Virus record (IMG/VR): IMGVR_UViG_2740892487_000001
Length of the DNA: 34,714 bases
Origin: a virus
Lineage: Duplodnaviria > Heunggongvirae > Uroviricota > Caudoviricetes
Direction: 5' to 3' (one strand)
In this document: in pieces, positions 1 to 34,714 of the stretch
Position numbering within the stretch: the first letter of the stretch is position 1
How the letters are laid out: the number at the start of each line of letters is the position of its first letter
Made by a program: the position numbers and the translations under genes
Notes under the pieces: model-generated
The model's input: only the letters and a program-made list of their open reading frames with translations
Database searches by the model: none
Told to the model about the DNA's origin: nothing

Positions 1-157
1 CATAATAGCGCTGAGGTCTGCCTCGTGAAGAAGGTGTTGCTGACTCATACCAGGCCTGAATAGCTTCATCATCCAGCCAGAAAGTTATGGAGCCACGGTT
101 GATGAGGGCTTTATTGTAGGTGGGCCAGTTGGTGATTTTGAACTTTTGCTTTGCCAC
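1..157 (-). CDS. IS903-family transposase, 5' portion (GTG start at 157; truncated by window edge)
   Basis: Minus-strand translation from GTG reads (M)AKQKFKITNWPTYNKALINRGSITFWLDDEAIQAWYESATPSSRGRPQRY, recalled as the IS903 transposase N-terminus. No ATG in frame; GTG start inferred. Confidence 0.7.
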   Translation of the reverse strand, partial: MAKQKFKITNWPTYNKALINRGSITFWLDDEAIQAWYESATPSSRGRPQRYY

Positions 158-234
158 GGAACGGTCTGCGTTGTCGGGAAGATACGTGATCTGATCCTTC
201 AACTCAGCAAAAGTTCGATTTATTCAACAAAGCC
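1..234 (-). mobile_element. IS903-group (IS5 family) insertion sequence, terminal part; inverted repeat at 216-234, element continues beyond window start
   Basis: Reverse complement of 216-234 is GGCTTTGTTGAATAAATCG, which I recall as the IS903 terminal inverted repeat; the adjacent minus-strand reading frame matches the IS903 transposase N-terminus. Confidence 0.75.
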
Positions 235-337
235 TATCATACAATGTGTTGACTCAATTTTATGGCACGGAACAACTTTTAGAATGAATGTGATAGAATC
301 ACGCGAAATTTCGCATTATATGTAGAGAGAAAACTTA

Positions 338-2340
338 ATGCTTAAGTATAGGAAAGAGCTTGATGGATTGCGTTGTTTGGCAGTGATGGCTGTCATCATT
401 TATCACTCTGGCATTTCTTTGTTTGGAGTAAAGATATTCAAAGGCGGATTCTTTGGAGTTGATGTCTTCCTGGTTCTTTCAGGATATTTAATTACAGATA
501 TCATTATAAATAAACTTGATAGCCGCTCTTTCTCACTAACTGACTTCTATTGGAGACGCATAAAGAGAATTGTTCCTGCTCTTATTGCTATGCTTGTAGT
601 TACATCGATAGTGGCTTATAAAATTCTTCTACCAAATGACTTAGTAAAATTCTCTGAATCTCTCATTTCTGCTATTTATTTTGGTTCTAATTATTATTTT
701 CTTGGTGAAGATAGCTATGTATCAAATGCAAGTATATTTAAACCACTCCTTCATACATGGAGTCTTGCTGTTGAATGGCAATTCTACGTATTTTATCCAT
801 TCTTATTGATTTTTATAAATAAATTTATTAAGAAATACAGAGTATTACTTCTTATATTGATTTCTGTTTCATCTATTGTGTATGCAAATATTATAGTTAG
901 CAGTTACCCTGACTTAGCATTCTATACGCTACTACCAAGGGCATGGGAATTAATTCTTGGTGGAATTGTGTCTTTTTTTTGTAAAAGAAAGAAGAAGCAA
1001 TATACATAAAGACCAATCATCTTTAACTTCGTTTCTGCCAGTAATTGGAATGTTGATGATTGTTTATTCAATGTTGTTTTTTGGAAATAACATCAAACAC
1101 CCTTCATTTATCACCCTAATACCTGTAGCTGGTTCATGTTTGATAATCGCATTTGCAAATGGTGCCGATTTAATATCTAAAATATTATCCTTGCGTCCGA
1201 TTGTCTTTATTGGCTTGATATCATATTCTCTATATTTATGGCATCAACCTGTTTTTGTTTTTTACAGGATATTATTTAGTGAAAATATCACTCCTTATTA
1301 CTGTGTAGTATTAGCATCAATTTCAATTGTTATTTCGTCTTTTTTCATATTTTTTTATTGAAAAACCATATAGAGCAAAACATGTTAAAAGTAAGAATAC
1401 AATAGTATTAGCAACATCTCTGTCAGCATTGCTTGCTTTCTCTATTTATGCAAAGGCCGATGGGGGTTTTCAGTGGCGTCTTGCAGGCATTCTGAAAGAA
1501 ACCTATGAAATGTACAAAGAACCAGAGTTCAGGAAATTGGCAGATTATTCAAATATTGGTAAAAGTTTAAGAGGTGAACCTGATAGTTATTTATGTGGTT
1601 TACGTTCTCTTGATAACCCGTGTAGCTTTGGCGGTGATGACATCATCGTATTAGGAGATAGCTATGCTGGACAATATGCACCAACAATTTTAGATTACTC
1701 AAAAGAAAATAACAAAGGGATGTTATCTCTCACGTATGAGCAATGTCCATTTGTGAGTGATATGTGGTTTGGCAATGTTCCTGAATGTGTGGTTGTCAAT
1801 GAGCAAAGATGGAAAGCCATTGATTCTCTTAAGGGGAAGAAAACTATTTTTATAGCTGCTAATTATGATCAATTCCCGCTTGCTAAGGCTCCTGTGTCAT
1901 CTCCTTTAGAGATGGCGAAGCAAAATTTTAGTGGCGGAGATTTTTTAGGTGGCGAGCAGGCATATATCTCTCTATCGAATAATGTTAAGAAACTCGTGTC
2001 CAAGGGGCATGATGTATATATTGTATACCCAACCCCTAATCCTTCTGAAGATGTTGCCAACATAGTATTCTCAAAACTAAGATCTATCAATTATAAGTTT
2101 GAGACAACATACACAAGCAGCAGAAATGGGCTTAACTTAGCAAAACAACAATCCGATATATTAGATAAATATATTCCTGACATGAAAGGATTGCATAAGA
2201 TAAAACCTATAAAAACTTTATGTGATGACAATGGTTGTAGAATAATTGACCATAACGGCGGATTATATAATGTTGGTTTTCACTTATCTAAATCTGGTGT
2301 TAAAGAAATACTTAATGATAACGGCTTTGTAATTAATTAG
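338..2340 (+). CDS. Membrane O-acetyltransferase (acyltransferase-3 domain, OafA/Oac-like) with C-terminal SGNH-type domain; frame broken twice at T-runs (973-980 and ~1339-1354)
   Basis: The three track ORFs 338-1009, 957-1361 and 1327-2340 join if one T is removed at each run. N-terminus MLKYRKELDGLRCLAVMAVIIYHS and multiple hydrophobic segments are typical of acyltransferase-3; the C-terminal part contains GDSYAG. Visibly AT-rich. Confidence 0.7.
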
Positions 2341-2370: not shown

Positions 2371-2402
2371 AAAAAAACAGCGGCAATTTCGCCGCTGTTT
2401 TT
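2371..2402. terminator. Bidirectional intrinsic terminator between the convergent acetyltransferase and tailspike genes
   Basis: A7 - CAGCGGC - aatttc - GCCGCTG - T5: GC stem flanked by A-run and T-run, placed between two convergent stop codons. Confidence 0.7.
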
Positions 2403-4348
2403 ATATAAAATAAGTAACAGAACCAATTATCTCAGCATTATTACCTAGAACATTTAGTTGTACATTCATATTACCAGCGACAGATGTAGCTCCTGTAAAT
2501 GTTATGTAATTACTTTCAGCATCAACCCTAGGCAATAGCGCAGCCACAGCCGTAGTTAAGTTATTGTAATACCCAATAGATCCAACAGAAGTAGCCCCTG
2601 GTCGTGACAAAAAAAGGTAATCCACCTATCCTATAACCATCTCCACTTCCAATAATCGTTATCCCTATGTGAAAACTTGCGGTCACTACATCACCAGTTC
2701 TTGTATAACTTCCAACTTGTTTATAGTAGGAGGCATTTCCGCCTACAGTCGGAATCCAAACTCCAGTTTCTATATCACCACACGACCAGTCTTCTGCTGT
2801 TGTTAGTTTTCCAGTAACAATAAATTTACTTCCACCACCAGAATTATAAGGAACAAAAATTGGTTTTATTCTTGCATAAGTGTTACCGATCTGCTCATTA
2901 AGATCATTTCTATCAATAAGAACTTGACCATTTTCGAAGTTTGAAATCTGGCAGTCTGTTACACTCCAGTCTCTTAACTTCACATCAGCATCCATGACAC
3001 CAATAAGCTTACCAGCATTACCAATTTTTTCTTTATGCATATTTACATACACATTTCTTACCGTAACAGACTGAGGGAACAAATAATTATCAGGATTAGT
3101 TTTATCACTTAAAACAGATATTACCCAAGGTCTGTGTTGAGTACTTACTTCACAATAAAATCCATCAATAAGCGTTCCAGATGCCGCTGGTCCAAGTAGT
3201 ATTCCACCTGTAGAGTGATGCGCACTACCTCCAATTACTCGCCCCTTAACGCAGTTAATATAGGCAAAATATCCTAAATCTTGATTGTTATATGCTGCCA
3301 TGGCGCAATCTCTTATTGTAACTCTAGAGTTCCCACCATCATATGCACTGCCATCCGTTTTTTTACCAGGTAAAGAAATGAAATTACCTATTGCAATATC
3401 ACTAAAAAATGTTTTTTTATAGCATCCTTCTATAAGGATATCCCAGTTTTCAAACTGAGCATATATATCATAAGAATCCTTATTACCATAATCAATAAAA
3501 TCACAATATTGTATTTTTGGTGTAAAAACAAAGCTCTTTACCATTATTCCAAACTTTGCATTTTGACCACCAGTGAATCTAATTCCATAAATTACATAAT
3601 CACCTTGATAAAAATTATCTGCTGTTGGTTGATCTTCGTCAGTTGGATCTCCACACTTAACTGCAGCGTCAGTTCCAGTATAGTTTATTGTTGCTCCTTT
3701 AAAAGAGTATAAAGTAACAGGTCTAATTAAATTCAATGACTCGCTAATAAGATAATTTCCATCTGGAAAGTACACGGATACTGGTGGAGAATATTTAGGT
3801 CTTGTGTTAACGTAATCTTTAAGTTTGAGCACCGCAGCATCATCATTCGTGCCATCACCTTTAAACCCAAAGTCTTTCGCGCTCACAAAATCTGCATTTT
3901 TATCGTGCTGTGCTCTCTCGATTGCCATAGAGAGGGGTTGTTTTACACGAACAACTGAATCATCAACTAATAATGGCCCATTTTCAGATAGCAATCTTTC
4001 CTGAAATTGATCAGGGTCATATTTCAGCACATTAGGGAAATAGAACTGCTGCGTGCCATACGCATCATATACAGCCATAGAATGGCCTTGCACAGTTACG
4101 AATTTGGCAATCTGCCCGTTATATACCGGATATCCAGCAGCGTTAATGATGATTGGCTGTGCAACAGAAACGTGAGAGCCGTCTTCGTTTTCCACATAAA
4201 CCTGAATCTGGTTTTCAGGATTTACAGGGTCAGTGTCAATTTTACCGATATAAATTTTGCCATTGGCTACGGCTTTAAAAGAACGAGCCATAGTGAAGAG
4301 TTGCGAAGGCATGCTTACCACAACATTGGCATTTATTGAATCTGTCAT
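2401..4348 (-). CDS. Tailspike protein: P22-like head-binding N-terminal domain plus a different beta-helix-like receptor-binding/depolymerase domain; frame broken at A7 (2608-2614)
   Basis: N-terminus [60 protein letters not shown] closely matches the P22 gp9 head-binding domain as I recall it; the rest diverges. ORFs 2561-4393 and 2401-2625 join if the run is A6. Confidence 0.85.
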
Positions 4349-4434
4349 TTTAATTTCTCTATATGTTAAGCAAGCAATATTCATTGCTAGCATGTTTTTG
4401 TATAATGAGTGAACTTTATTTAAAGGTGGTTAAC

Positions 4435-4945
4435 ATGAACTGGAACGAAGTATTCGTATTAAAAGACGATGGACTCCTGTACTGGAGTGACCAATATCTT
4501 TCAAGACCCAAAATGTTCAATATCTCTAAAGAAAAGCCTGCAGGACATATATTCAAGGACAAGAACAGGAAAACATCTTATATAATTATCAGGTATCAAG
4601 ATAAAATATACGCCGCCCATAGGATAATATGGGAAATGTTTTATGGTGAAATCCCTTCAGGAATGCAAATTGACCATAAAGATGGTAATGGGTTAAATAA
4701 TTCAATAGACAACCTGCGTCTAGTTAGTCTCGGTGAAAACCTAAAAAAACAAATCTAAATACACAAACAATACATCCGGGTGCGCAGGTGTTTCATGGCA
4801 TAAGACCCATAAAAAGTGGGTGGCATATATTAGCGACGCAGGGAAGCGCATTAATCTCGGATACTTTAAGTGTCTCGATGATGCAATTGCTGTAAGGCGT
4901 GAGGCTGAAAAGACCTATGGTTATCATGAGAATCATGGTAGGTGA
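4435..4945 (+). CDS. HNH endonuclease with C-terminal AP2 DNA-binding domain (homing-endonuclease-like); frame broken at A7 (4743-4749)
   Basis: HNH motif QIDHKDGNGLNNSIDNLRLVS; after the stop at 4758 the +1 frame continues NTSGCAGVSWHKTHKKWVAYISDAGKRINLGYFKCLDDAIAVRREAEKTYGYHENHGR (AP2-like). Shine-Dalgarno-like AAAGGTGG before the ATG at 4435. Confidence 0.7.
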
Positions 4946-5012: not shown

Positions 5013-5035
5013 AAAAAAACCCAGCCGAAGCTGGG
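5013..5035 (-). terminator. Intrinsic terminator downstream of ant
   Basis: Minus strand reads CCCAGC-TTCG-GCTGGG followed by T7, just after the ant stop codon. Confidence 0.7.
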
Positions 5036-5957: not shown

Positions 5958-6025
5958 GTTGGTTTTTCTCCACGAATTTACTGACAACAGAAGCCCTGAC
6001 TGTTCCCGCAGTTGGGGCTTCAACT

Positions 6026-6187
6026 TTACGCGCCAATACGCCCTTCCTTCTTAAAGCTGTCCATTACTCTCTGATAAATCTCAGAGTTAACAGACCGACC
6101 ATTCTCTTCCGCCACCTTGCGTACCAAATCCAATACTTCTTTAGGCCACCGCAAATTGAACTGCGGCATTTTGCTCATTCCTTTCAT
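6026..6187 (-). CDS. arc: Arc repressor (ribbon-helix-helix)
   Basis: [53 protein letters not shown] is near-identical to P22 Arc as recalled. Confidence 0.95.
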
Positions 6188-6532: not shown

Positions 6533-6590
6533 TCGATTACAACCCAGCAAAAAAAAGAAATCATCGCAGCTAAAAAAGTGCCTAGAGCAG

Positions 6591-7341: not shown

Positions 7342-7825
7342 ATGAGTTACGCTGTGCTAGTTGCCGCAACTCTATTTATGGGGATAGGGTTGCAGATTGC
7401 GTGGTTCTTTTTTTTCTAGTTTTATTAAACGCAAAAGAATTGAATCAAGGATATCTGAGATTTCTATTGCTATAGGGAAAAATGCTGAAAATCCAGAGAA
7501 TGAGGCCTGCGCACTGAATTACCTTAAAGAAAAGTTTTCCCCTGAAAAATTTGAAAATAGAATTACTGATGCTCTTGGATTGGTAATATCAGTAATTCAT
7601 ATGCCACTAAGTTTGCTGATAACAGTGTGGTACTTCGCCATGATCGCCGGAAGAATATTTGGTTTCATGAATATAGAGCCTGTAGTTCTTTGGGTTCCAA
7701 TGATACTGCAACTGTTGTTAAGCGTTGCTATCTTTATTTTTTCTGTTTTTATAAAAATTGTCTTTGGAAGATATCCCGGAGAAGCTAAGGGATTTAATAA
7801 AGAATTCATAAAAACTATAAAATAA
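7342..7825 (+). CDS. Putative inner-membrane superinfection-exclusion protein (SieA-like by position); frame broken at T8 (7408-7415)
   Basis: ATG at 7342 gives [24 protein letters not shown] and rejoins ORF 7397-7825 if the run is T7. Several hydrophobic segments; lies between the gp16 and mnt homologs where P22 carries sieA. Confidence 0.45.
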
Positions 7826-7847: not shown

Positions 7848-9694
7848 CTACTGCCGGGTCGCTTCGTTAGCTAAGAGCGGGCGCACGGCAGTAGCAGCCT
7901 GATTTAGCGCTCTTTCATAAGCTGGCGTTCCAGCTTTAGTGTTTGCCAGACGTAAGAGCGCATTCCTTGCTGCTTTGGACTCATACAAACGCATCATTGC
8001 ACCGAAACCAGCCTCAAGCCCCATTGATACGCCAAGAGTCGCAGTTGCGCCAATCGTCCTTATCCTGTTGGCTTGAGATTGCCCCGTCTGAGTTACTACA
8101 TTTGCGGTGTCTGATCTTGCTGTTTGCTGTAGAACTTCATGAAGAGCATCAAGTTCTTTCATGTGCTTTCCAGAAAAAATAGTGTTGTAAATTTCACCGC
8201 CTGACTGAGATTTCAGCTTATTAACTTCCGTGATGAACTTGGCTGGAGAGTCACCGGCCTTTTCCGCTATTTTGCTGACGTAAGCTGCACGCATAGCATC
8301 TTTCCCTTTATCATCCAATGCGCTCCAGATTCGTTTCACGTCAGATGGTTTTCTGCTTAATACAACGGTATTTATAAGTTCAGGACTGGCTTCACTGTTT
8401 GCCTTGTTGAGCTTGTTAGCAATGTTTTTATTAAGCACCTTATTATAAACGTTTGCATAATCGGAATTTGCTTTAAGGTATTTTGCTGCGTCTGACGCAC
8501 CGAGGTTTTTTGCAACTGCGTTACGAAGGTCTTTTGACATTGCATTCTCTACCATATTGGTAGCTGCTTTTGCCTGGTTGGGGAAGACCATAGCATCTCC
8601 CTGAACATTAGATCTAAATGCTGTTCTGTGCTGACGCAATAGATCAAACGTAACATCCAAATCAGTTGCAGGGTTTGCTAATTCTTCACGTAGGTTACGC
8701 AAGGATGTAAGCAGGCTTTGATTGGCTGAAGTCCCAAGCCGTTCCTGTCTTGCGATCGCTGTATTCAGAGCATTCATGGTATTTGTGGTATCAACTGCGG
8801 CATTACCCATTTTATTGGTGACGTCATTGATAACAGCGCCAGCAGCATCCTTCCGCCCCCTTAACGTGGTGGTCAGAGATTTCACCACATCATCAGGGTT
8901 GTACTCACCAAAACGGTCAAAATAATTGCTTACCAGCTTACTACGCGTTGCATATTGCTCCGCTCGCTTTGAGCCTGTCCCGAGCAAAGCCCCCTCGGCA
9001 TCCTGAGTAAGGCCGCGAGTGAAAGCATTTTTCGGCGGGATAACATCAGATGTCATTGGTGTCACACCCATTGATTCTGAGGTGGCAATTTTTTTTTTTT
9101 CGCTACTTCTGGCGCGATATCGCCTTTTATAGCCGTTATTCCACGCCCTATTCCCTTTGCTGCTGCGGAAAGAACACCCTGAGCGGCAAGGTTAACTCCG
9201 GCATTTATGGCTGCATTTTGCGCGAAATCACCTTTCTGGTTTGCGGCTTCTGCCAGTGATCCAATAGCCATGCTTCCTGCCGTTCCAACTCCTGGAACTA
9301 AATACCCGCCAATTGTTTCTCCAGCTTGCGCATAAGGGTCTGTCGGTCGATCGACAGGGCGATAAACATCATCCAAAACCTTGGGACCACCAAGACCCTG
9401 GCTGATTGCATTAATCAGACTTGCGCCACCCTGCAATACGTCAAATGGTATGTTTACCAGACCACGACCAGCCTGCTCTGCAATTTGCCCTGCACTTTGA
9501 CCACCTGTGAGCCAATCGCCAGCTTGTTGCATCAATGATGGTTCTTCCTGTGTTGGTGCATTATTGGCCTGATTAACTGTTTGTTGCTGAACAGCCTGAC
9601 CAGCAAAATACTCATCAATGGCGGTGCCAATATCTTCGGTGCTCGTACCATCAGGAAAGGTAAATGTCTTACCGTTTGCAGTTACTTTCATCAT
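7848..9694 (-). CDS. Ejection (injection) protein gp16-like; frame broken at the T12 run 9089-9100 (A-run encoding KKKK on the coding strand)
   Basis: N-terminus [32 protein letters not shown] resembles P22 gp16; ORFs 9062-9694 and 7848-9071 join with a length change in the homopolymer. Confidence 0.8.
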
Positions 9695-11157
9695 TCCACC
9701 GTAAATTGAATGCCTGATTTTGAGGTATATGATCCGGATTGACTCTGCTGCGGTTGGGTATTTGTCGGTTGTTGGCTATTGCTCTGTTGTTGACTATTTG
9801 CAGCACTTGAAACCACCAAAGCATCATAAACGCGACCAGACTGACCACGTAACGAGTTATATTGGCCCTGCATTTTTCGCATTTTTGTTTCAGTAGCAGC
9901 CTTGGAATCACCGGGCTGAGGCAGGTACATTTTGGAATACTCCTGCATCTCTGGCAGAGTAATTGCTGCACCTGTTTCTGGGCGCAAAATTGCATACAAG
10001 GCGTCTCTCGCATTTACCATATATTGCTGCTCCGCTGGTGATAGGCTTAAATTTGCAATAGTCCCATCACCAAGAGAGCGATTTATTAATGCAACTCGCT
10101 TAGGGTCAATGCTTTTACTAAGCTGATTCATTGAGTCCATTGAATCTTTTAATCGCAAAGCAAATCCTGCCGCCTTCTTGGAACCCTCATTAGCCTTATC
10201 TATGATGCTTTGCGCTTGTGGCAAGCTAATTGGTTTAATGCCATCACCAGATATAGGTTGGTTTAGTTTTCCGGCTTCCTCGCTGCCATCGGTGTAATAC
10301 TTAGTTACCGAGCCATCAGGATTGGTTTCAACCTTAAGTAATTTCTTAGCATTGGGATTAATTCCCGCCGCTGCCGCAAATGCTGCTGCACCATCTGGAT
10401 CCGCCTTTAACATTTGCGCGTACTGATTGTAATTCTGCATTGCGGCTGTTGGTGCATATGCTGACGTTAACGCATTTGCTCGGCTAATATCCTGCCCTCT
10501 CGCCTGAAGTGCTTCGCTGGCCTGATTGCTGCGGATTGTCTCTGCCAGCCTGCCTCGGTCAATTTCACGACCAGCCATCTTATCCTGAACATTGAAGTAA
10601 TCAATCGGACCAAGCGCGGCCATTCCAAGGTGATCAACAAACTCACCAAATCCTGAAGGATTCTGCTGATACATCTGAGCAACGTTATTAGGGTCAACAC
10701 CGACGCGCGCCAGCTCATTGGCGTTGTTTTGCAGCCATGATTGCATTGCTTCTGGAGACGATGACGCAAGGCGTGCGCCAGCCGCTAAGGTGCCGATAGA
10801 ATTACGCTGATCTTCATCAATGAATCCCATGCCTTTACGAACGGATTCAATCTGGTCTGGATATTGAGTAGCCAACTGACGCAAAGCACCGCGATCACCA
10901 GACGCATAAGCATTAGCGTACGCCTGCTGAAATTCTTTCTGCCGCTGAGCCTGCTTTTCCTGCTGAAACACCCCTGCAATACCTGAAAGACCTTGCAAAG
11001 CAGTCAGCCCAACATTGTTAGCGCCTGAACGCTCAATATCATTGTTCTGCCTGATAAGCTGAAGCGTATTGCCGATGTCATTTACGCTCGGAGCGTTTGA
11101 GTTGACGCCGCCGATACCAGCTAACAATCCACCATTTGATCCTTGCCAAGTAGCCAT
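9691..11157 (-). CDS. Ejection protein gp20-like
   Basis: 488-aa ORF in the P22 gene-20 position between the gp7 and gp16 homologs; assigned by gene order and size. Confidence 0.75.
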
Positions 11158-11166
11158 GATTACCCC

Positions 11167-11858
11167 TTAAAACAACGAGCCAAGCAATCCGATACCAGCA
11201 CCAATGCCAGCGCCCCAAGGTGTTGATGTTCCCAAAAGGCTGGCAAGACCTGCACCTGCAATCGCACCAGACGTGCCACCGCTAATTGCAGTCTGAAGAC
11301 TTGATGGTTTATTGGCATTAGCAGCGGCAAGAGCTGCGCTTTGCTGTGCAATGCTGCTCATGTTGTTGGCGTACGTCTGCCCGGCGTTTGCCTGACCTTG
11401 CAGAGCACCAAGCCAATGTTTGCCAGATTGTTGTAGTTGCTCATCTGGTTCGACAACCACGACTGACCGAGAGTCGGGGCAATCGTGGCCAGTTGATTGC
11501 TTGTGGCTGTCGAGCCAAGTCCACCCGTCGCCTCCGCAGCAGCAAGACTCTGGTAACGCGCCTGACCTGCAAGGTCTTTATACTGCTGAGAGTTGTAATA
11601 CTGATTAAGTGCCTGCCCCTGTCCTTCTAAACTGGAAAGATTCTGAAGCTGGTTAACATACTGCTCCGCAAGCGGCGTGAACGGAGCAAGGTTTTTCATG
11701 ATCGTCTGCCACTGTTGATTTTGCAGGTCTGCGGCATACTTCTGAGCTTCTGCGGCATACTTTGCACTTTTATCAGAACTGCCACCTTTCCCGCCTTTTT
11801 CAGGGCAATAAGGTTCCTCGCCGCGCAGTTTTCTGCCCAGCTTAAATGCATATAACAT
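11167..11858 (-). CDS. Ejection protein gp7-like; frameshift near 11400-11420
   Basis: MLYAFKLGRKLRGEEPYCPEKGGKGGSSDKSAKYAAEAQKYAADLQNQQ... matches P22 gp7 as recalled; the C-terminal part (GALQGQANAGQTYANN...GIGLLGSLF) continues in a second frame, consistent with a missing G in a short G-run. Confidence 0.8.
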
Positions 11859-11860
11859 GG

Positions 11861-12319
11861 CTATCTCCCGTGATTCAGGAAGTCGATTAGTTCTTCGCGT
11901 GTGGCGCTGTAAAACGTCACGTCATCAACGCCTTTGAAGTATTTCTTGATGGTTCCTACACGCTTAAGGCCAATCATTGCGCAGTACATCTGACCGTGGC
12001 GGAATTTGCGTGCAGCGAACGATGTGACGCACTGAACAGTGGTGTTAGTCAGAATGTATCGCCAGAACGCCAGCCCGATTTCCTTGCTGAAGCCACGAAT
12101 CTCTGGCAGGTACATGGCGTGGCAATCGAATGTAAGCGGCTGAATCTCCTGATAGTAAACAATGCCGCCGAACTGCCCGTGCACGTTCACCTCAAAGTAA
12201 CGGCAATCAGGTTTGTAGTCGTATCCATCACCGTTGTTGCTCCCGGCAATAATGTCAGGGTGATTTCCGACTGCTTCGATCAGGTCGATGTTTCGCGTTG
12301 GTTTGAACTGAATCATCAC
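11861..12319 (-). CDS. gp14-like head/ejection assembly protein
   Basis: 152-aa ORF in the P22 gene-14 position between the tail needle and gp7. Confidence 0.6.
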
Positions 12320-13269
12320 TGCTCCGCGATTATCTTGATGGTTGTGGCAGTAAACGCCGCACCATTTGACTGAATGGTTAACGTGCTGCCATTTGTGGCA
12401 AGAAATCCGTCTTTATCCACGCTGAAGAACGTAGCTAACAGGATGTTGTCGGTTGTTGTCGCCGCATTACGACTGCTAACCAGTGTGTCAGGAACAGAGC
12501 CGGAAAAGGTTAGCTGCATTGATCTGTTAGCGGTTCCGCTGGGCCACGTCCCGACGATCGACAGCTTGAAGAACAAGGTTTTGTTCTCGTTGAACACAAC
12601 CATCTTGTTGTTAACGGTGTCGAAGAATGGTGCCAACGTTCCGGATGACGGCGTGAGCGTTTTCAGCAGGCTAACAAGGTTAGTCGGCGCTGTCGGGATG
12701 GTTACAGATACTCCTGAGTAAACAACCTCTGATTTCTTGCGCGTGGTGGCATACTCAAGCGCAGATATTCTTGTTGAGTGATCACCAACTGTGCTTTGTA
12801 GCGTCGAAATACTTCCTTCTGCCGCTGTGAGCCTGGTATCAAGTGCGTCGATATCGGTTGTATTCTGAGTTATGCGCGCATCATGGTTTGCTAACTCAGA
12901 TTCATTGGCAGCAATTCGCGTCTCGTGATCAGCCAGCTCTGTTTCAGCAGCCGTAATCCTTGTTTCATGATCTGCAAGAGTGCTTTCCGCTGCTGCAATT
13001 CTATGTTCATGATTGACGAGAGTTGCTTCAGCAGCTTCAATTCTGGATTCATGGTCTGCAAGGGTGACATCCTGCTCATCATTCTTCACCTGTGCATCAT
13101 AAGCCCCCTTCCCTGCTTCGTTGGCCTTGTTAGCCACGTTACCAACATCAGTGCCCTGTGCGATAACGTAAAGCAGATACGACTGCGAGAAGATATTGCG
13201 TGGAAGAACTGATGTATCGAGCCGCGTAGCTTGGATGATTACCGGCACATTGAGATTCGAATCCGCCAT
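12316..13269 (-). CDS. Tail needle protein (gp26-like) with extended coiled-coil heptad repeats and a C-terminal knob domain
   Basis: N-terminus [43 protein letters not shown]...[13 protein letters not shown] matches the P22 gp26 N-terminus as recalled; followed by repeated ADHE(S/T)RI...AAE motifs. Confidence 0.85.
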
Positions 13270-14687
13270 TACTCAATCCTTATCTGGCAGCCAGACAGAG
13301 TGACAGGTGACTTAGTGATAACGCGCAATTTGAAGCCAACATTTTTCCTGATGCGCCCTACTCGCTTCCACAAAACGCGTTTGTCGTAAACGAACGGTTC
13401 ATTCTGCTCAATCATCTGCTCACGACAGTAATTGATGCCATCAGTGGTTGCCGAGAGGAACAGGCGGTCGGCGTACTGAGCAACACCCGTCGATGATTCC
13501 ACCTCCAGATCAAAGCATCTGGCGTTATCTGCTTTGAAGAGTGGAGTAAACAGCAGGTGTTCTTGCTGTAGCCCATACTGGCTGCTGATATCGAACTGCA
13601 ATTTCCCGGTCACGGACTCCAGCTTATCGCCGCACGTTATCTGATTGCCTTCGTAAATGAAGTCAATGGCGCGGTACACATCGTCATACAGGCCTGTTTT
13701 CAGTACACACCATTGCGGAGCATTGGCGCTTGAAGATGCGTCGTACACCAGAACATGGCGCGGAAGATGGATAATCAGCAGCTCATGAGCATCAAAGCGC
13801 AACGATTCCATCACGCCATCAGCCAGTTCATCAGCAGTGTAGGAGCGGAGGATTTTCTCAATGCTCGCGCTGGCGATTGGTGACACCTGCCCGGAGCCGA
13901 TGATATACACAGACGGCGCACCTGTTGCCGGATTGCTGATGAACGCATACGAATCAGCAAACTGCGTTTTGCAGTAGGTTCCGGCAATGCCTTTCTGCAC
14001 CATCAGCGATGGCTGTGCGACATACAAAGCAGCACCAACGGTGGTTGCGCCAGTCAGGGAGAAATATTCAATCGTCGATGAACCAAAGCAGACGATGAAG
14101 TCTCGCCATGTTCCGATGCCGATGATACCGTCCGGCTGCGATTCTGCGCGATATTGTGCGCTGTATCGGTCAGGGTGCGATTCGTCTTCAAGGTCAGTGA
14201 TAAACCATGAATCAGTACCGTCTTTTGACCACGCATAACGCCCACGTAAGCGCGTAATGTCGCGAACTGAACCTAACTCGTACTGTGTGAATCCGCTGTC
14301 AGTAGGCCAGTTTGAGACGGTTTTAACCGTGCCATCATAGCGGTATTCGACCAGTTGACCATTAACGCCTACCGCCTGTGATGTCCTACCATGCGCCATT
14401 GATACACGACCACTTCCGGCGACGTCACCGACTTCGCTTTCACCCTTATACAACTTGCCACCGCAAACGCGATAAACAGCATTCTGCGCCATGTTGTACT
14501 CGACTCCGCGCGATACACCGTTCACATCAGAACGTTTGGCAATGCCCGGGAATGAGCGAAGATATCCGCTGCTGTTCAGGATTTCTTTGGGTGTAGCCAG
14601 CATATTCACTGGCAGATAGTCGATATAGTCGGCGTTTCGAAAGTCTTTGCCGACACCTTTCATAAGCGGAAGTTGCTGAATCGGCAT
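13269..14687 (-). CDS. Tail accessory protein gp10-like
   Basis: 472-aa ORF, the same length as P22 gp10, in the conserved position between gp4 and gp26. Confidence 0.8.
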
Positions 14688-15165
14688 TTATTCGCTCCCG
14701 TTATCGCAAGGTTCCTTCCGGTGGAAGTAATTCCAACCGTTCCACTTCGCCAACTGGTTACCACTACCAACAGGCATACGGTTTGGATAACCGGACTTAC
14801 ATTTAGCGGCTTTTGCTCTGTCCATTGCAGACAGTTTGACGAGTCGCTCTTTCCCGTATCTGGCAGTGGTTATAAGTTTTGCAGGCGCTTCCAGCGCATA
14901 ATCCGGTGCAATGCGGCAGGCAAGGTTGAAAATAACAGCATTGATAGCGTTATTTGATAAACCGTGCTCATCGCCCGGATCTGGAGCGACATCTGCATCA
15001 GCGAAAATGTAGCCAACGCTGATACCAGGTGACACATCACCGCCAAGCCATTCAGCCATCATCATTTCAAGGTCGTTGACGCCGTCTTCCATAGACTGCG
15101 GTTCGACATCGGTTAACGTGGCATTTGATGCCACACCGAGCTTACGTAATGCTGCAAGGACTAAA

Positions 15166-15188
<23 letters not shown>
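14688..15188 (-). CDS. Tail accessory / head-completion protein gp4-like
   Basis: From the ATG at 15188: [33 protein letters not shown]... matches P22 gp4 as recalled. The upstream (SQ)n extension in the track ORF is the alternative frame of the hexamer repeat. Confidence 0.85.
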
Positions 15189-15438
<250 letters not shown>

Positions 15439-15450
15439 GCTTGTCTCCAG

Positions 15451-15474
15451 ATAAAAAAGGGAGCCGAAGCTCCC
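15451..15474 (-). terminator. Intrinsic terminator-like hairpin immediately downstream of the coat gene
   Basis: Minus strand reads GGGAGC-TTCG-GCTCCC followed by T6, starting 9 nt after the coat stop codon. Confidence 0.6.
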
Positions 15475-15482
15475 TCTGGTTA

Positions 15483-16778
15483 TCACGCAGTCTGGTTAGG
15501 CAGACCAACACCAATTGCCTCTGGTCGTACAGCACATGCTGAATACCACACAGCAATACGGCACTTACCAGACAGAGTGTTGATATCACCCTGCGTTGCG
15601 AAGATGCCGTTAACACCAATGCCAGGAATGCTGAAGGAAGAAGTTTTCATGCCCGCAAACAGTTCATGGGTTACCGGGATCGGCTGAGACAGTAGGCGGA
15701 TTGAGTCATCAGCCCAGAACACGTTAGCGGTGGTTGTTGCCACGTTCAGAACGTTTACCGGAGTGGTATCAGCAAGAGATGTGTTTACATTAGCGTAAGC
15801 CTTCTCTTCTTTTGTCAGTGACGCGTCATCCAGTGCAATCGGTTTCGGCGTGATTTCGATGTGAGTACCATCGATCACACGGGTGATTGAGAAAGTCGCA
15901 TCATCAGTCAGCACGTTCTTCGCCATCTGAGATAGGAATTTCACACCAGTGAAGCTGATTTTGTCGCCGCGCTTAAATCCGGTGGTGGAGGATACGGTCA
16001 CCGTTGCAACACGGTTGTCGACGTTCTCTTTGTTACCATCAGTATCAAGGGTGTATGCCTGCGGCTTAAACTTCTGCGCACCAGAAACAGTTACACCAGT
16101 AGCGGTTGACTTGGTAACTGCAGGAAGTTTCGGTGAGCGAAGAATTTCATCAAAGCCAGCAATCTGACGCTGAATAGTACCGTTGCGATAAGCTTCTTCA
16201 GGAACGCGCCCAAAGATGTCACCATCTACCAGGTTGCGGCCTGCTTTGCGGTAATCGTCAGGGTTCAGGAAGTAACTGATGCCCATGTCGCGGTTGAGTT
16301 CGCGGGAGAACATCAGGCGCTCTGCATCAGACACAAAATCCCAGCCAGACAGGCCAGTAGATGGACCAATTGCGCGGGTATCGTGAACAACAAGTGAGCC
16401 CATTTCAGTTGCCTGTTTGGCAATCGCTGACTCAATGTTATTCGCCAGTTTTTTGGCAGATGCCTGGATGCGGCGACGGTAAGAACGCTCATCACGCAGG
16501 TCATCTGCACGAAGCTCGAAGAAATCGTTATCCGGATCACCCATGTTGCATTTCACGGAGAGTTCCAGAATCCCAGTAGCGTTGCCAGTTAAATCCCAGC
16601 CAGTCTGAGTTGGCGCTTCCTGCTCAACAGGCATCCACACGGTGTTGCTTGAACGTTGCATGGATTCTGCCGGAGGGGTGTATTTTGTCACTTTGGACGC
16701 CATTGGCGTCAGGTTCTGGACGGTTTCGATGATTTCATCCAGAGCATACGTGACCAGTTGACCTTCATTTAATGCCAT
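15483..16778 (-). CDS. Major coat protein (P22 gp5-like)
   Basis: [54 protein letters not shown]... with C-terminus [14 protein letters not shown] matches P22 coat protein as recalled. Confidence 0.95.
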
Positions 16779-17689
16779 TATCGAATTCCTTTATTCAGTT
16801 GCGCCTTGAGCTTGCGGTACGTCTCTACATCCCCTTTGTTTGCTGCCGCTTCCATCTGCTTTTCAATCGCAGATATATTTGCAGCAACAGCGTGTCCCTG
16901 AATGGGTTCATCAGGTAGCGGGGCTTCTGAAACAGGTTTGGCTCGAGGCTTGAGAGTTAAACGTTCTGACAGTCGAGTGAGTTCAATCAGCGCGGATTGC
17001 CCGTCCATCGCCAGCAACTGGCGTGTTTTCTCAGGATTAGCACCAAGGTGATACATGAGAGCGGCGGATTTCTCCGGGAAGAGGAGCATGATGTCGGCAC
17101 CGACTGCTGGCGGCACCAGTTGCATGAATGCATCCTCTTTCTCCTGATAGTCAGGGATATTGAGCTTTTCCGCTGCGTCGTAGTGCTTACGGGCTGCCTC
17201 GACGTATTGCGCTGATTGCTGGGTGAACTCCTGAGTTTTGCGACCCTGCTCGGCGACAGCCTGGCTTCGTGCGTCCATAGCCTTGATCTGCCATTCACTG
17301 TTTGCCTGCTGGAAGGCAGCCAGTGCGCGGCTCTGGTCATAGTCGTACTTAGCCAGCGCATCTTCGGAAAGATAATCGTTAGGGTCTGGTTGTTTTGGTA
17401 ACTCAGGGTTCACCCGCAGGTGCTCCGGCAACTCTCCACGCTTAACCGCTTCCATCTGCTGCTCAAGCTCACGCTGGCGTTTGCGTTCGATGCGGCGACG
17501 GGCAAATTCAGCATTAGTTGCCGGGTCTTGTTTTGGTTTCTCATCGTCTTTCAGGACAATCTCGAAGCCTTCTTCCTGACCTGCGATGTCGTTGGCATTA
17601 TCGACAACTAAGCCATCAGCAGATGCCGCTGCATGATTTCCGGGCAGGGTTAATTCTTCAGAAGCCTGAATGTCGGTGGTTTGGTCCAT
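16778..17689 (-). CDS. Scaffolding protein (P22 gp8-like)
   Basis: 303-aa acidic, helix-rich ORF between portal and coat. Confidence 0.85.
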
Positions 17690-17702
17690 GGTTAACTCTC
17701 TC

Positions 17703-19868
17703 TTATTGAGGTGTCTCGGCTACTCCGCCGGAGGGGATTTGAACTTGACGCATAAGATTCGCGAAATCCATGCGTTGTGAATGAGTCTGGTCTGCATCTT
17801 TAAGAAGCAGCTCAGCGTTAGCACGAGCATCTTTGCTGCGCTGTTGCTGGAATTGACCTACGAGCTTGAGGTACTCACGCAGTTCTGCCTGCTTGTCGAG
17901 GTCCATATTGTTGAAGATTTCCGCAATCTTCGCGGCGTTGAGTTGGTTTTGGGCTTCAACCTTGGCGGCCTCAACCTGAATCTGCGCCTGTTGGTTCTCT
18001 GCCTTGAGCAATTCAGCCTGACCTTGCAGAAGGATACCCTGCGCCTGAATTTGCTCTGCTGATGGCTGCTGCGGCTGCTGTTGAGCCTGCTGTACCATCT
18101 CCATCTCTTCAGGTGTTTCTGGTTTCTTCAGCCCCATCATCACCAGTTGCTTGTTAGCGTACTCTCGCATCATCTCGACGCCTTTACCGTCAAGCAGCGT
18201 GAAGTATTGCAGCATCAGCATCTGGAACTCTGGAGTACCTTGCGGAACCTTAGTGAGCAATTCCTGAATCTCTGCGCGGTTCTGTTCCTTCATGCTCTGG
18301 AAGGATGGCCCAACGTCTGTATAGCACTCATAGCGACCGCGAATGTCGTTGAGTGTGACCACATTACCGGACTGGTAATCTACAACTTGCGCGTAGAGTT
18401 GAACGTCTTTCTCGCTTCCATCTTCAAGTGTCAGCGTTACATGACGAGGAACGTCATAAATATCGTTGACCATTGAGGCATAAATCTCGCCATCACGTCG
18501 CATTGCGGTAGCCAGGTTATCCTGAAACACGTATGTCTCAAGGTCTGCCCGCATGTTCAGTTGATTGACGGTATCGAAAGCGACCTGACCATTTGCCGCC
18601 TGCGCATCCACGCCAAGACTAGCCACTTCTTTCACTGCGTTGGTGGCAGCCTCAAGCATGTAAGCGTTGGCTTGCGGCACTTCAGGGTTTTCCATGTAGG
18701 AGATTGGACCAATCGGCAGGTCGTTACCGTTTTCATCGGTCCTGTTCTGCAGATAGTACGGATAGTCATCATTTCCACCGTACATGTATTCGTAGCCTTC
18801 GATTTGCTCAGGGAAGAAGGTCGGTTTCTTCTTCGGTGTACGAGCAACAATATCGGCGTTGAACGACATGATCATGTTACGAAGGCGTTGACCGTCTTTC
18901 GTCAGCCTTACCACGCCCTCGTAGCACTCCTTGTCACCAGCGAATGACCATTCGCCGTACACAGGAACGATTGGGATATGCTCTCCAGCTATCTTCTCGC
19001 GGTCTTTCAGTATCTGCGTGCAGGTGATGATCGACTTATACACACGCCGACGCTTGACCTTACGCTCTGCTACCTTAATGAATCCACGATTAGCCAGGTC
19101 GTCGATGACGTCTTTGATATCCTGCTGGAAATAGCTGACCGGCTCACCTGTCAGCGGGTCGCGGTAGATGAAGACTTTCTCCTTCTTCTCTTCTACCTCG
19201 TAATACTCAGCGACGTAGACGACATCATTCGATACCCACGGAAACAGCCATGTATCGTTCGGATTCTGGAAAGATGGCAGCGTGTCAGGATCAATGCCGT
19301 AATCCTCTGCGAACTCTTTCCAGCCATTGCGTGACAAAGCGTTAATCACCGTGCAGTGCTTAGCGTCGCTCTTATCCATCTGCTTGCTGTTGGCGTCCCA
19401 TATGACGTGTGAGCAGGCTTCATGGATTGGCAGGCGTCGGATTACCTGATTGTTGCTTGTTGGATCGTTGTCTTCGTACTGCGTGACCAGACGCCATGCA
19501 CCAACGCCTGACTCTATCTGCTCACGAACGCCAACGTTAACGGCAATTTTTGCCGTGTTATGGCGCATATCAGTACGATACATCCCCATCAACACATCGG
19601 CTGCATCAGGATTAGCACCGTCTTTTGGTCGGAAGAGAACGTCGATAGGGTTCCGGCGCATCTCTGCGACCAGTTTCCTGACCACCGGGCGAACAACATC
19701 GAATTGTCCGCGATATTGCAGGGTCGTGTAGTTTGATAGCCAGTCATCCCATTGCGACACTCGGCTAAAATACAGGTCATTTGTCGCCTCGGTTCTGGCT
19801 TCATCGCTCGCCATCCAGTCTGCGTCAAACTTACACAGAATGGAATTGAGTCTGTTTTCGTCGGCCAT
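17703..19868 (-). CDS. Portal protein (P22 gp1-like)
   Basis: [66 protein letters not shown]... matches P22 portal as recalled; Q-rich C-terminal barrel region. Confidence 0.95.
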
Positions 19869-21369
19869 TTAAGTTCTCCGTGCGATGGGCCTGATTGGGG
19901 CTGGTATCTTTTTCTCTTTTGGTTTTTTGATGTCGCGCATCATTTTTGCGAAGCGGCGCATCATGTATGCATAGCGAACGGCTGAGAGAACGTCATCGTT
20001 AAGCTTGACGATCTTCCCGTTTTCATCACGGTGATAGAGGCGGAACTCCTCAAAGAATGGCTCACAGGTGTTGAATACTTTGAAGCGTCCATCGAGCATC
20101 ATGTCGCGCAATTCAGTGATGCCAGGCTCAACAGCATTACCGCCATCAGGCCATGTCGCATGCTCCTGCAACATCATAAAACCAGCGTCCGCGTACTGCC
20201 CTTTAAGCTGCTCACCGCCGCCCTTCTCGTGCTGGTTTCCGTCATGAGGCCATGCGGTTGGCACTTTATGCGCCCAAGATTTAACGGCTCCCCACGCCTG
20301 AACGGCTGTTTTTTTCTTTCGCCTTCCACACGCGTGAAACGTAGATTGTGTCTGCGTCCTTATCCCACCAAAGCTGAACCTGCGCCTGCGGGTGATCCCA
20401 TCCGAAATCCATACCGCCAATTACGTAAAAGTGATCAGGGCACTCGAACGGCTGACACTTAATCGTCTCTTCCGGTATCTGGAAGATTCGCCCGCTACCC
20501 ATCGTAGGAATACCGCGAGCACGCGCCTCTCTCTCATGCTCAGGATAGGATGCGATGATTTGCTCTTTCTGCTCGTCGGTGTAGTGCTCAGCGTCATAGA
20601 TGGTCATGTTGACCACTTTCTGCGACTTGCTGGGATTCTTCAGGAACTTGGTAACAACGTCAGACATCCCCATCAGCGGGGTAAACGTCAGAATTGAGAA
20701 TTGCCCGTATTTGTTGGTACGGGTAAGCCCTTCGCCATAAATGCTGTATGGTGGTTCTTCGTCAAACCACACACCGTGGATTGTGTCACCCTGCCAGCGA
20801 GCACGGCCTTGCGAGTATGGTTTGAAGTAGCAGATTGAAATACCATCTTCAACGCCATCAGCCGTGTGATGCTTAACCAGAAGATGATCAACAAGGTTCG
20901 GAAAGAAAGGAGACTTCTTCCAGCTAATGATGTCCTCTTTCGGTATGGAACCGTAGCCTGGCTCACCATTCTCTTCGATACGACCGCACAGGATGCGTTG
21001 AGTCGTTTTGGTTACAGTCTCGTTTGTCTCTCCACCAATCCAGAAGACAACAGGCTCATAGAAACGCTTACCTTTCCACTCACCGCCATATTTACCATCA
21101 GCAGGATAGCCTTTTGTGCCCGGATAACGACCGGTAAGGTGAAACGCGACTTCAGCAGCACCAGTAAATGACTTACCAAGCTGGTTACCAGCCATAAAAC
21201 ATCGCTCTGGATAGTCATGCCCGGCGTCGATGAACTCACGCTGCTTGCTGTATGGCGTAAATTCATATAGCAGGTGTGTGTTCCGGTAGTTCTCTTCTTC
21301 TTCGAGTAGCTCGAGCAACTCGATTTGCTCTTCGTCGCTCAGGTTATCAAGAATCGCGTCCAGTTCCAC
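19869..21369 (-). CDS. Terminase large subunit; frame broken at T7 (20309-20315)
   Basis: ORFs 20281-21369 and 19869-20420 join if the run is one base shorter; position and size match the large terminase. Confidence 0.85.
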
Positions 21370-22883: not shown

Positions 22884-23088
22884 CAGTGCTCACCTTTTAG
22901 TGATGAACCTTGTCACACAGGATTCCGGCCCACAGAAAGGCACCGATCACCAAACCGGCATCCTCAAGGGTCATCCTGAAAGGTTCTGTGTTCATAAGTC
23001 GCGCGTGTGAAGCGCGTTTACTGCGGACATAAAAAAAGCCCTGCATCGCGAGGCTCATTAAATGGACTTTGTGATTTGCAAAAAAAAA

Positions 23089-31977: not shown

Positions 31978-32188
<211 letters not shown>

Positions 32189-32198
32189 TTAGTACAGG

Positions 32199-32272
32199 CA
32201 ACCATTATCACCGCTAGAGGTAAAATAGTCAACACGCACGGTGTTAGAAGTTTATCCCTTGCGGTGATAGAT
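32199..32272. promoter_or_regulatory. OR1-OR2-OR3 with divergent pR and pRM
   Basis: TATCACCGCTAGAGGTA (32206-32222), CAACACGCACGGTGTTA (32230-32246), TATCCCTTGCGGTGATA (32253-32269) match the lambda OR half-site pattern; pR -35/-10 sit on the minus strand. Confidence 0.85.
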
Positions 32273-32276
32273 TTAA

Positions 32277-32995
<719 letters not shown>

Positions 32996-33026
32996 TTGTT
33001 TTATTTTTCACGTAATAGGATGATTT

Positions 33027-33368
33027 ATGACACAATTTCAACTTGCATTAATCGCTAGAGAAGTTGATGGAGAAGTCATCCATCTTCGCACCAAAGACGG
33101 ATACATCAATGCCACCGCGATGTGCAAGTCTGCGGGGAAGCTACTTGCTGACTATACACGACTAAAAACAACACAAGATTTTTTTGATGAATTATCACGC
33201 GATATGGGGATTCCCATATCGGAGTTAATTCAATCATTTAAAGGCGGAAGAGCAGAGAATCAAGGGACTTGGGTTCATCCAGACATCGCAATTAATTTAG
33301 CTCAGTGGCTATCTCCAAAATTTGCAGTGCAAGTATCGAGATGGGTGCGTGAGTGGATGTCAGGTTAA
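33027..33368 (+). CDS. KilA-N domain protein, in the position occupied by rexA in lambda
   Basis: 113-aa ORF directly downstream of cI on the same strand; sequence is consistent with a KilA-N/APSES-type DNA-binding domain (judged by eye, low certainty). Confidence 0.6.
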   Translation: MTQFQLALIAREVDGEVIHLRTKDGYINATAMCKSAGKLLADYTRLKTTQDFFDELSRDMGIPISELIQSFKGGRAENQGTWVHPDIAINLAQWLSPKFAVQVSRWVREWMSG

Positions 33369-33404
33369 AGAGCGCCTGCCGAACTCCCTATCCACCTTAA
33401 GCGG

Positions 33405-33787
33405 TATATGACAAACCGAGGCAGAGTTCCTCATACGCACTTTTCTATGCTTAATGAACTGACGTTTAACTTGGTTGCGCCACTTGAACAGGCCGGATAT
33501 ACGCTGCCAGAAAAAAATGGTCCCTGATATTTCAGAGGGTAGGGTTTTCTCGCAATGGCTCCGTGACAACCGGGGGGTTGAGCCGAAGACATTCCCAACA
33601 TATAACCATGAGTACCCAGATGGCCGGACATTCCCGGTACGTCTATACCCAAACGAATATTGCAGATTTCAAACAATACTTCAACGAAGTGTGGCTGCCT
33701 CAGTACGCTCCTAAATATTTTGCTGAACGAGACCAAAGGGCATTGACGTTGATTGAGAAAATCATGCTACCTGACCTTGATTCCTAA
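33405..33787 (+). CDS. Hypothetical protein downstream of the KilA-N gene, same frame as it; frame broken at A7 (33511-33517) and again near 33640
   Basis: ATG at 33405; coding-like sequence continues through three frames (…PDISEGRVFSQWLRDNRGVEPKTFPTYNHEYPDGRTFPVRLYPNEY / ADFKQYFNEVWLPQYAPKYFAERDQRALTLIEKIMLPDLDS) and ends 9 nt before a terminator. Confidence 0.45.
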
Positions 33788-33795
33788 ATGTTATT

Positions 33796-33822
33796 CCCGG
33801 CCACAGAGCCGGGTTTTCTTTG
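33796..33822 (+). terminator. Intrinsic terminator ending the cI operon (t_imm-like)
   Basis: CCCGGC-cacaga-GCCGGG followed by TTTTCTTTG. Confidence 0.75.
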
Positions 33823-33973
33823 CCTCACGATCCCCCTCACCCAAGAACACATAACCAATTGTATCTATTTGAAAATAAATAGATACAACTCACTAAACAT
33901 AGCAGTTCAGATCTCTCACCTACCAAACAATGCACCCCTGCAAAAAATAAATTCATATAAAAAAACATACAGA

Positions 33974-34037
33974 TAACCATCTGCGGTGATGAATTATCTC
34001 TAGCGGTGTTGACATAAATACCACTGGCGGTGATACT
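33974..34037 (+). promoter_or_regulatory. OL3-OL2-OL1 operators and pL promoter
   Basis: TAACCATCTGCGGTGAT, TATCTCTAGCGGTGTTG, TACCACTGGCGGTGATA; -35 TTGACA (34009-34014) and -10 GATACT (34032-34037), matching lambda pL as recalled with a few substitutions. Confidence 0.85.
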
Positions 34038-34105
34038 AAACACATCAGCAGGACGCACTACTCACCAGGGCGGTGAATATACAACGATTCAAATATGAAT
34101 CTACG

Positions 34106-34120
34106 GCGCTGACAAAGCGC
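34106..34120 (+). promoter_or_regulatory. nutL boxB hairpin (P22 type)
   Basis: GCGCTGACAAAGCGC between pL and the N-like gene. Confidence 0.65.
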
Positions 34121-34248
34121 AATAACCAAAGTGAACTTTGGGGTGAATGCAGAAGCTAACCTTCTCGGCGGAGGCGCTTTGCAATGATTACGCTACCGGA
34201 GTTAGTCGCCCGGCTGTATTCACCGCCAAAGTTCACCAGGAGGTCTAT

Positions 34249-34632
34249 ATGACACGCAGAACTCAGTTCAAAGGCAATTCACGTTCTCGTCGTCGTGAGC
34301 GTTTAAAGGCAAAGGCATTAGCTAACGGCGTACTGGCCCGCGAAGAAGCAATAAGTTCAGAAGTATTACACCGCCCTACTCTAAGCAGAGCGCAGATTCA
34401 GGCTAAAGGTACTCACGAAACGCCTGAGCGCATAGAAGACGCTAAGCCAATTAAGTTCATGGCACAGGACGTGATCTGGCAACAGAAAGAATACAGACGC
34501 AATCTGGAGAGAGCGGCCATTGTGTACGCGAATGAGTTTGGACATAAGCAACCAGAAACTGGTGTATGTCTTCCAAATGTAGCTCTTTACGCAGCAGGAT
34601 ACCGGAAATCAAAACAACTGACGGCGAGATGA
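34249..34632 (+). CDS. N-family antiterminator (P22 gene 24-like C-terminus, not lambda N)
   Basis: AGGAGG 6 nt before the ATG; arginine-rich motif GNSRSRRRERLKAKALA; C-terminus LPNVALYAAGYRKSKQLTAR resembles P22 gp24 as recalled. Confidence 0.7.
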   Translation: MTRRTQFKGNSRSRRRERLKAKALANGVLAREEAISSEVLHRPTLSRAQIQAKGTHETPERIEDAKPIKFMAQDVIWQQKEYRRNLERAAIVYANEFGHKQPETGVCLPNVALYAAGYRKSKQLTAR

Positions 34633-34714
34633 CTTGTGTTGGTCGCCAGAAGCAACGCGGAAAATCAATTCCAGCTTATTACGATTGAGGTGAGCCATGC
34701 TCAAGAAAGTCAAA

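Follow-up and report, generated by a model that had tools for sequence, protein, structure and literature searches.

An IS903B-like end upstream of the acyltransferase gene of a P22-like prophage in Escherichia coli RCE11

The window analysed here is the entire contig LAWZ01000048.1 (34,714 bp) of assembly GCA_001631005.1 from E. coli RCE11, and its left edge falls inside an insertion sequence (IS). The genome LAWZ00000000 belongs to an isolate from a Crohn's disease patient, which was sequenced on the Ion Torrent PGM with a 200-bp kit and assembled with MIRA 4 (PMC5517970). The IS end is followed by a short remnant of an intergenic spacer, an acyltransferase gene and a converging tailspike gene. 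The features to which the following analysis refers are listed below, numbered from the first letter of the window.

1..234, minus strand: IS903B-like left end (IS bases 1-234), cut by the contig end; 99.2-99.6% identity, with one mismatch against the full copy in L006
2..157, minus strand: first 52 transposase codons, read from GTG (157-155), with TTG 202-200 as the alternative start; based on translation, PF13737 and RefSeq
217..234, minus strand: left terminal inverted repeat of 18 bp, GGCTTTGTTGAATAAATC; perfect match, with a single occurrence in the window
235..243, plus strand: TATCATACA, the expected right-hand copy of a 9-bp target-site duplication; single in the uninterrupted comparators L001-L004
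235..337, plus strand: remaining 103 bp of the intS-acyltransferase spacer (170 bp when whole), recognised by identity to L001; includes a promoter-like extended -10 and, directly ahead of the ATG, a purine-rich AGAGAGA
338..2340, plus strand: AT3 + SGNH acyltransferase (Pfam PF01757 and PF19040), in three ORFs through one extra T at each of 973-980 and 1340-1345
2401..4393, minus strand: P22-type tailspike, converging on the acyltransferase gene, in ORFs 2561-4393 and 2401-2625 through one extra A at 2609-2615
973-980, 1340-1345, 2609-2615, 4743-4749, 5013-5019, 6549-6556 and 6572-6577: over-long A/T runs (first part)
7408-7415, ~9094, 20309-20315 (terminase), 23080-23088, 32596-32602 and 32683-32689: over-long A/T runs (second part)

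Positions 1-234 are the reverse complement of bases 1-234, that is the left end, of IS903B. In a search of plasmid records, at least 5000 records matched this segment at 95-99.6% identity, at least 4592 of them at 99% or more, and the matches are annotated under the RefSeq name "IS5-like element IS903B family transposase". Among 5426 complete E. coli genomes, 1949 also contain a match to the segment, some with as many as 47 matching places, so that IS903B is multi-copy in many of them. A full 1057-bp copy located on a Citrobacter plasmid (L006) agrees with the window at 233 of the 234 bases, the sole mismatch being at window position 3. The terminal inverted repeat, read from 234 to 217, was found with 0 mismatches and once in the window (0.04 occurrences expected by chance), and both ends of the full plasmid copy are identical across its 18 bases. 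IS903B belongs to the IS903 group of the IS5 family, is 1057 bp long, has 18-bp inverted repeats and produces a 9-bp target duplication. Every feature visible in the window agrees with this description; one end of the element is on the contig, amounting to 22% of it (234 of 1057 bases), and the copy as a whole could be truncated or otherwise defective. The original prediction of an IS903-type element was borne out, and the near-identity together with the exact 18-bp repeat allows it to be named more specifically as IS903B-like. Judged by this agreement, the segment is the end of an already known element, and its presence here an ordinary event.

The position of the contig edge probably has a technical origin. 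The window would start at IS base 234 because the draft assembly breaks within a multi-copy IS, the assembler having presumably proceeded about one read length into the repeat before it stopped. For annotation purposes, the left edge of the contig is best read as an assembly break in a repeat and not as a biological boundary.

The minus-strand frame of the transposase is open from 223, and the GTG at 157-155 begins VAKQKFKITNW..., the translation from this codon being VAKQKFKITNWPTYNKALINRGSITFWLDDEAIQAWYESATPSSRGRPQRYY. The classical IS903 transposase has 307 residues. In line with the GTG start originally noted, the GTG at 157-155 opens this classical 307-residue frame; it represents one of two annotations, however, since the RefSeq coding sequence for the same transposase has 322 aa and a TTG start, at position 1402 of the plasmid locus L006, which corresponds to window position 202 (TTG 202-200) and lies 45 nt upstream of the GTG. 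The GTG is a reasonable choice of start, with the TTG as an annotated alternative. The 52 N-terminal codons matched the Pfam family PF13737 (DDE_Tnp_1_5) with 30.7 bits, just above the cut-off of 28.1; the catalytic region lies past the contig end.

The site of insertion could be compared with its uninterrupted form in four independent E. coli genomes, namely strain 81 (CP088131, L001), Br_167_kylling (CP182378, L002) and two draft genomes (L003 and L004). The order of genes in these comparators is yfdC, tRNA-Arg (argW), intS, the 170-bp spacer, the acyltransferase gene (666 aa) and the converging tailspike gene. Their empty site reads ...TTTTACATTTCAG / TATCATACA / ATGTGTTGAC..., continuing with ATGTG after TATCATACA, and the junction in the window reads ...TTCAACAAAGCC / TATCATACA / ATGTGTTGAC.... 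Identity to the comparators begins exactly at 235, which makes the IS tip at 234 unambiguous, and positions 235-337 are identical to positions 6001-6103 of the strain 81 locus. The element lies 67 bp past the intS stop and 103 bp ahead of the acyltransferase ATG. Unlike strain 81 and Br_167_kylling, in which intS is directly upstream and the 170-bp spacer is unbroken, the window has IS903B in the spacer, on a contig without intS. The coordinates originally given for the IS end (234) and for the "acetyltransferase" ATG (338), with 103 bp (235-337) between them, are right. The 9-bp target flank had also been sought at the proper place, next to this tip, but the sequence quoted for it, ATCATACAA, corresponds to 236-244 and is displaced by one base; the right one is TATCATACA (235-243).

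A simple insertion predicts that the flank on the far side of the element, next to intS, would read ...TTTTACATTTCAGTATCATACA (also ...CATTTCAGTATCATACA), followed by the right IS end GGCTTTGTTGAATAAATCAG. Exact-pattern scans of genome, metagenome and viral contig collections gave no match to the IS-prophage junction, none of the 5426 complete E. coli genomes spans it, and the predicted left junction was absent from the metagenome contigs in such a scan.

In order to see how often a duplication accompanies this element, we surveyed 39 unique full-length IS903B copies with the same left-end 30-mer in species-representative genomes (L008-L127). A perfect 9-bp direct repeat abuts both tips in 18 of the 39, and no match was found in the other 21. 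The earlier proposal that a missing direct repeat would refute the IS903 assignment is too strong, as those 21 copies are still IS903B; an absent repeat would point to a later rearrangement and not to an element other than IS903B. In the copies lacking a duplication the two flanks are unrelated, which would agree with copies often recombining with one another, and possible reciprocal exchanges can be noticed between L029 and L083, which share ACTAACAGG/GCAGATTAC, and between L046 and L069, which share GATCTGGGC. As a separate observation, the flank of the Citrobacter plasmid copy at 1435-1443 is CATCATACA, which matches TATCATACA of window 235-243 at 8 of 9 bases; this likeness could be due to chance among many sites or could be a hint of target preference.

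The prophage into which the element is inserted appears to belong to the P22-like prophages with an IntS/TorI module that lie between argW and dsdC, the same site as that of CPS-53/KplE1 in K-12. In the related prophage of strain 81 the left end is marked by argW/intS and the right end by torI (excisionase), which adjoins dsdC. This layout places the IS insertion point some 1.4 kb to the right of the left boundary, which is at argW, upstream of intS; the right end of the window falls about 5 kb short of the right prophage boundary. Strain 81 and Br_167_kylling have the same order as the window, with acyltransferase, tailspike, ant, arc/mnt and ejection proteins, at 99.8-99.9% identity over 235-2600; additionally, the right arm of the strain 81 prophage matches window 32144-34714 at 99.3%. 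The window itself contains a P22-type tailspike head-binding domain, ant, arc/mnt and sar RNA, and argW, intS and torI were seen in the comparators only. A tRNA scan found no tRNA gene in the whole window, and Rfam and tRNA scans gave no hit in 1-337.

Two readings of the IS had been offered originally, a boundary marker of the prophage or a later insertion into its accessory region. The first does not agree with the comparators, whose boundaries are at argW, about 1.4 kb to the left, and at torI/dsdC; the second is upheld by the four comparators with an empty site and an identical 103 bp. By this comparison, the IS is internal to the prophage, provided that the far side of the element is still occupied by intS.

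In the two draft genomes L003 and L004 (positions 8673-20672), the prophage is reduced to intS, the acyltransferase gene and the tailspike gene, with an ant fragment in addition in L004. Genes similar to emrYK and evgAS, named from their Pfam domains, follow directly after the tailspike/ant remnant, which indicates that most of the prophage has been deleted there.

The acyltransferase gene appears in the window as three ORFs, 338-1009, 957-1361 and 1327-2340. When compared with the intact 666-aa gene of strain 81, the sole differences over 235-2600 are T8 instead of T7 at 973-980 and T6 instead of T5 at 1340-1345. The 666-aa comparator protein contains PF01757 (Acyl_transf_3) at residues 6-332 (E 2e-35) and PF19040 (SGNH) at residues 425-657 (E 6e-26); this is the AT3-SGNH architecture of the OafA/OafB type, with an N-terminal Acyl_transf_3 membrane domain fused to a C-terminal SGNH domain. 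On the basis of these domains, the gene is likely an O-antigen-modifying, lysogenic-conversion gene. The tailspike, which has 647/648 aa in the comparators, and the terminase large subunit are also split into separate ORFs by over-long runs, and the remaining runs in the list may disrupt additional genes.

It is important to mention that these differences follow a single direction. A 96%-identical prophage (L007) allowed seven homopolymers of at least 7 bases to be checked, and all seven are longer in the window, by 1-2 bases; moreover, every homopolymer length discrepancy against this prophage or that of strain 81 is an insertion in the window, and the window is never the shorter one. At ~9094, the excess over close relatives reaches 5 bases, in a T12 run. 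According to the authors of the RCE11 genome, their correction clears only part of the homopolymer indels (PMC5517970). Since the over-calls are systematic, the data are from Ion Torrent and the homopolymer correction was incomplete, the frameshifts are most likely artefacts; the frameshifts of the window are probably products of sequencing, not signs of prophage decay, and the product of the real acyltransferase gene would then be identical to the 666-aa AT3-SGNH protein of strain 81. Genes of this contig that look like pseudogenes, among them those for the acyltransferase, the tailspike and the terminase, should accordingly not be taken for decayed ones.

A genuine acyltransferase pseudogene was also considered, and was rejected as the default by the homopolymer comparison and the sequencing method, with the T8 tract as a possible exception. 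The T8 allele, with a truncated product of 223 aa, is also found in four contigs of other assemblies, including L003 and L004 (~10636-10643). The T8 loci of these two carry the SNPs of Br_167_kylling at 1836 and 2043, where the window agrees with strain 81. The presence of T8 on a different SNP background means that it is a real allele somewhere, and it could be real in the window too; slippage may recur at the T7 tract, which might even act as an on/off switch of the acyltransferase gene.

As regards the origin of the junction, we consider it probable that it arose by simple transposition of IS903B into the intS-acyltransferase spacer of a P22-like prophage that E. coli RCE11 has between argW and dsdC. 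An IS903B copy would have transposed into the prophage and landed in the 170-bp spacer that leads from intS to the AT3-SGNH acyltransferase gene, with its transposase gene directed away from the latter, and it would have duplicated 9 bp of the target. The junction might instead be the scar of a recombination or deletion, involving another IS903B copy or an adjacent deletion, in which intS and attL were lost and the IS became the left edge of a prophage that could no longer be excised. Such a history has points in its favour: the matching 9-bp repeat is missing from 21 of the 39 surveyed copies, E. coli genomes can hold up to 47 matching places, the related prophages in the two draft genomes and in strain 81 are heavily deleted themselves, and the contig ends in the IS, with visible data starting at IS base 234, so that a deletion or inversion between two copies is possible. 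However, the visible junction is the one that a primary insertion gives, the IS tip being followed by unbroken native sequence; nothing appears to be missing from the remaining prophage on the contig, between the tailspike and antiterminator N; and no positive sign of rearrangement was seen. We regard a scar as unlikely. A chimera formed by MIRA from error-prone Ion Torrent reads, for which the high homopolymer error rate and the location of the IS segment at the very end of the contig could be invoked, is scarcely credible. The two sequences switch precisely where the inverted repeat ends and have no bases in common that might have seeded a false overlap, and a chimeric break exactly at the tip of a transposon is not expected, which counts against an assembly artefact.

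The simple transposition leaves the question of the acyltransferase gene, for which the original prediction envisaged either a displaced native promoter or outward transcription from the IS. Read-through from the transposase gene is excluded because that gene points away. A consensus scan found no plus-strand promoter-like site in 1-337, nor along a complete IS903B element placed in the window's orientation. With a looser scan, two good -10-like hexamers were observed at the junction, TATCAT (235) and TACAAT (240), but their best -35 partners inside the IS match at 2-3 of 6 positions with non-optimal spacing, and no usable -35/-10 hybrid was found. Outward transcription from the IS thus received no support. 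The best native promoter candidate in a hexamer scan is an extended -10, TGaTAGAAT, at 291-299; it belongs to the 103 bp still in front of the gene and does not differ from its counterpart in genomes with an empty site, which speaks against displacement of the native promoter. The insertion separates the gene from the other 67 bp of the spacer and from whatever transcription might run on out of intS. Such transcription is conceivable, as no terminator-like site was detected in the comparator from the intS stop to the acyltransferase ATG, and the IS would interrupt it. The full IS903B copy contains one plus-strand terminator-like hairpin (L006 929-945).

An altered expression of the acyltransferase gene, through an outward or hybrid promoter or through the loss of an upstream promoter or regulatory site, is supported by precedent. 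IS903-group elements of Paracoccus, ISPam1 and ISPpa8, have outward promoters in their 3' terminal part that drive downstream reporters (PMC3281130). These elements belong to the same IS group as IS903B and show that a neighbouring gene can be activated, and in view of this precedent IS903B may have a weak, non-consensus outward promoter. However, they are distant, alphaproteobacterial elements with 3' terminal promoters, whereas the IS in the window turns the 5' end of its transposase gene towards the acyltransferase gene and has no outward promoter-like sequence; in a literature search, an outward promoter was found for the Paracoccus elements and none for IS903B. The one plausible effect is to disconnect the acyltransferase gene from the distal 67 bp and from any transcription running on out of intS. 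We nevertheless consider a change in expression to be quite improbable. For the acyltransferase gene, the most likely outcome of the insertion is no effect or, at most, a mild polar one, because the promoter-like sequence nearest to the gene and its ribosome-binding region are left intact and no outward IS promoter is recognisable. Still less probable, in our opinion, is that the IS rewires a lysogenic-conversion gene in this Crohn's disease isolate, through lost intS read-through and distal spacer or through a cryptic outward promoter; if this were true, O-antigen acylation would be changed and the recognition of RCE11 by phages or by the immune system altered.

The event itself is of low importance, IS903B being among the commonest insertion sequences of Enterobacteriaceae and intergenic insertions in prophages being routine. 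The useful outcomes of the analysis are the corrected sequence of the duplication, the placement of the IS inside the prophage and a warning about homopolymers in this contig.

Three further observations were made in the window. The sar antisense RNA of the P22 immI region was detected at 5958-6025 on the plus strand (Rfam RF00262, 91 bits); as in P22, it has arc on one side and ant on the other. A small ORF at 4363-4758 on the plus strand, between tailspike and ant, has a counterpart of about 169 aa with an HNH-endonuclease motif in strain 81 (L001 10198-10707), and the window version is seemingly shortened by an A7 over-call at 4743-4749. Finally, a 13-pair, GC-containing hairpin flanked by an A-run and a T-run is located at 2373-2402, between the converging acyltransferase and tailspike genes, and by its structure it resembles a bidirectional intrinsic terminator.
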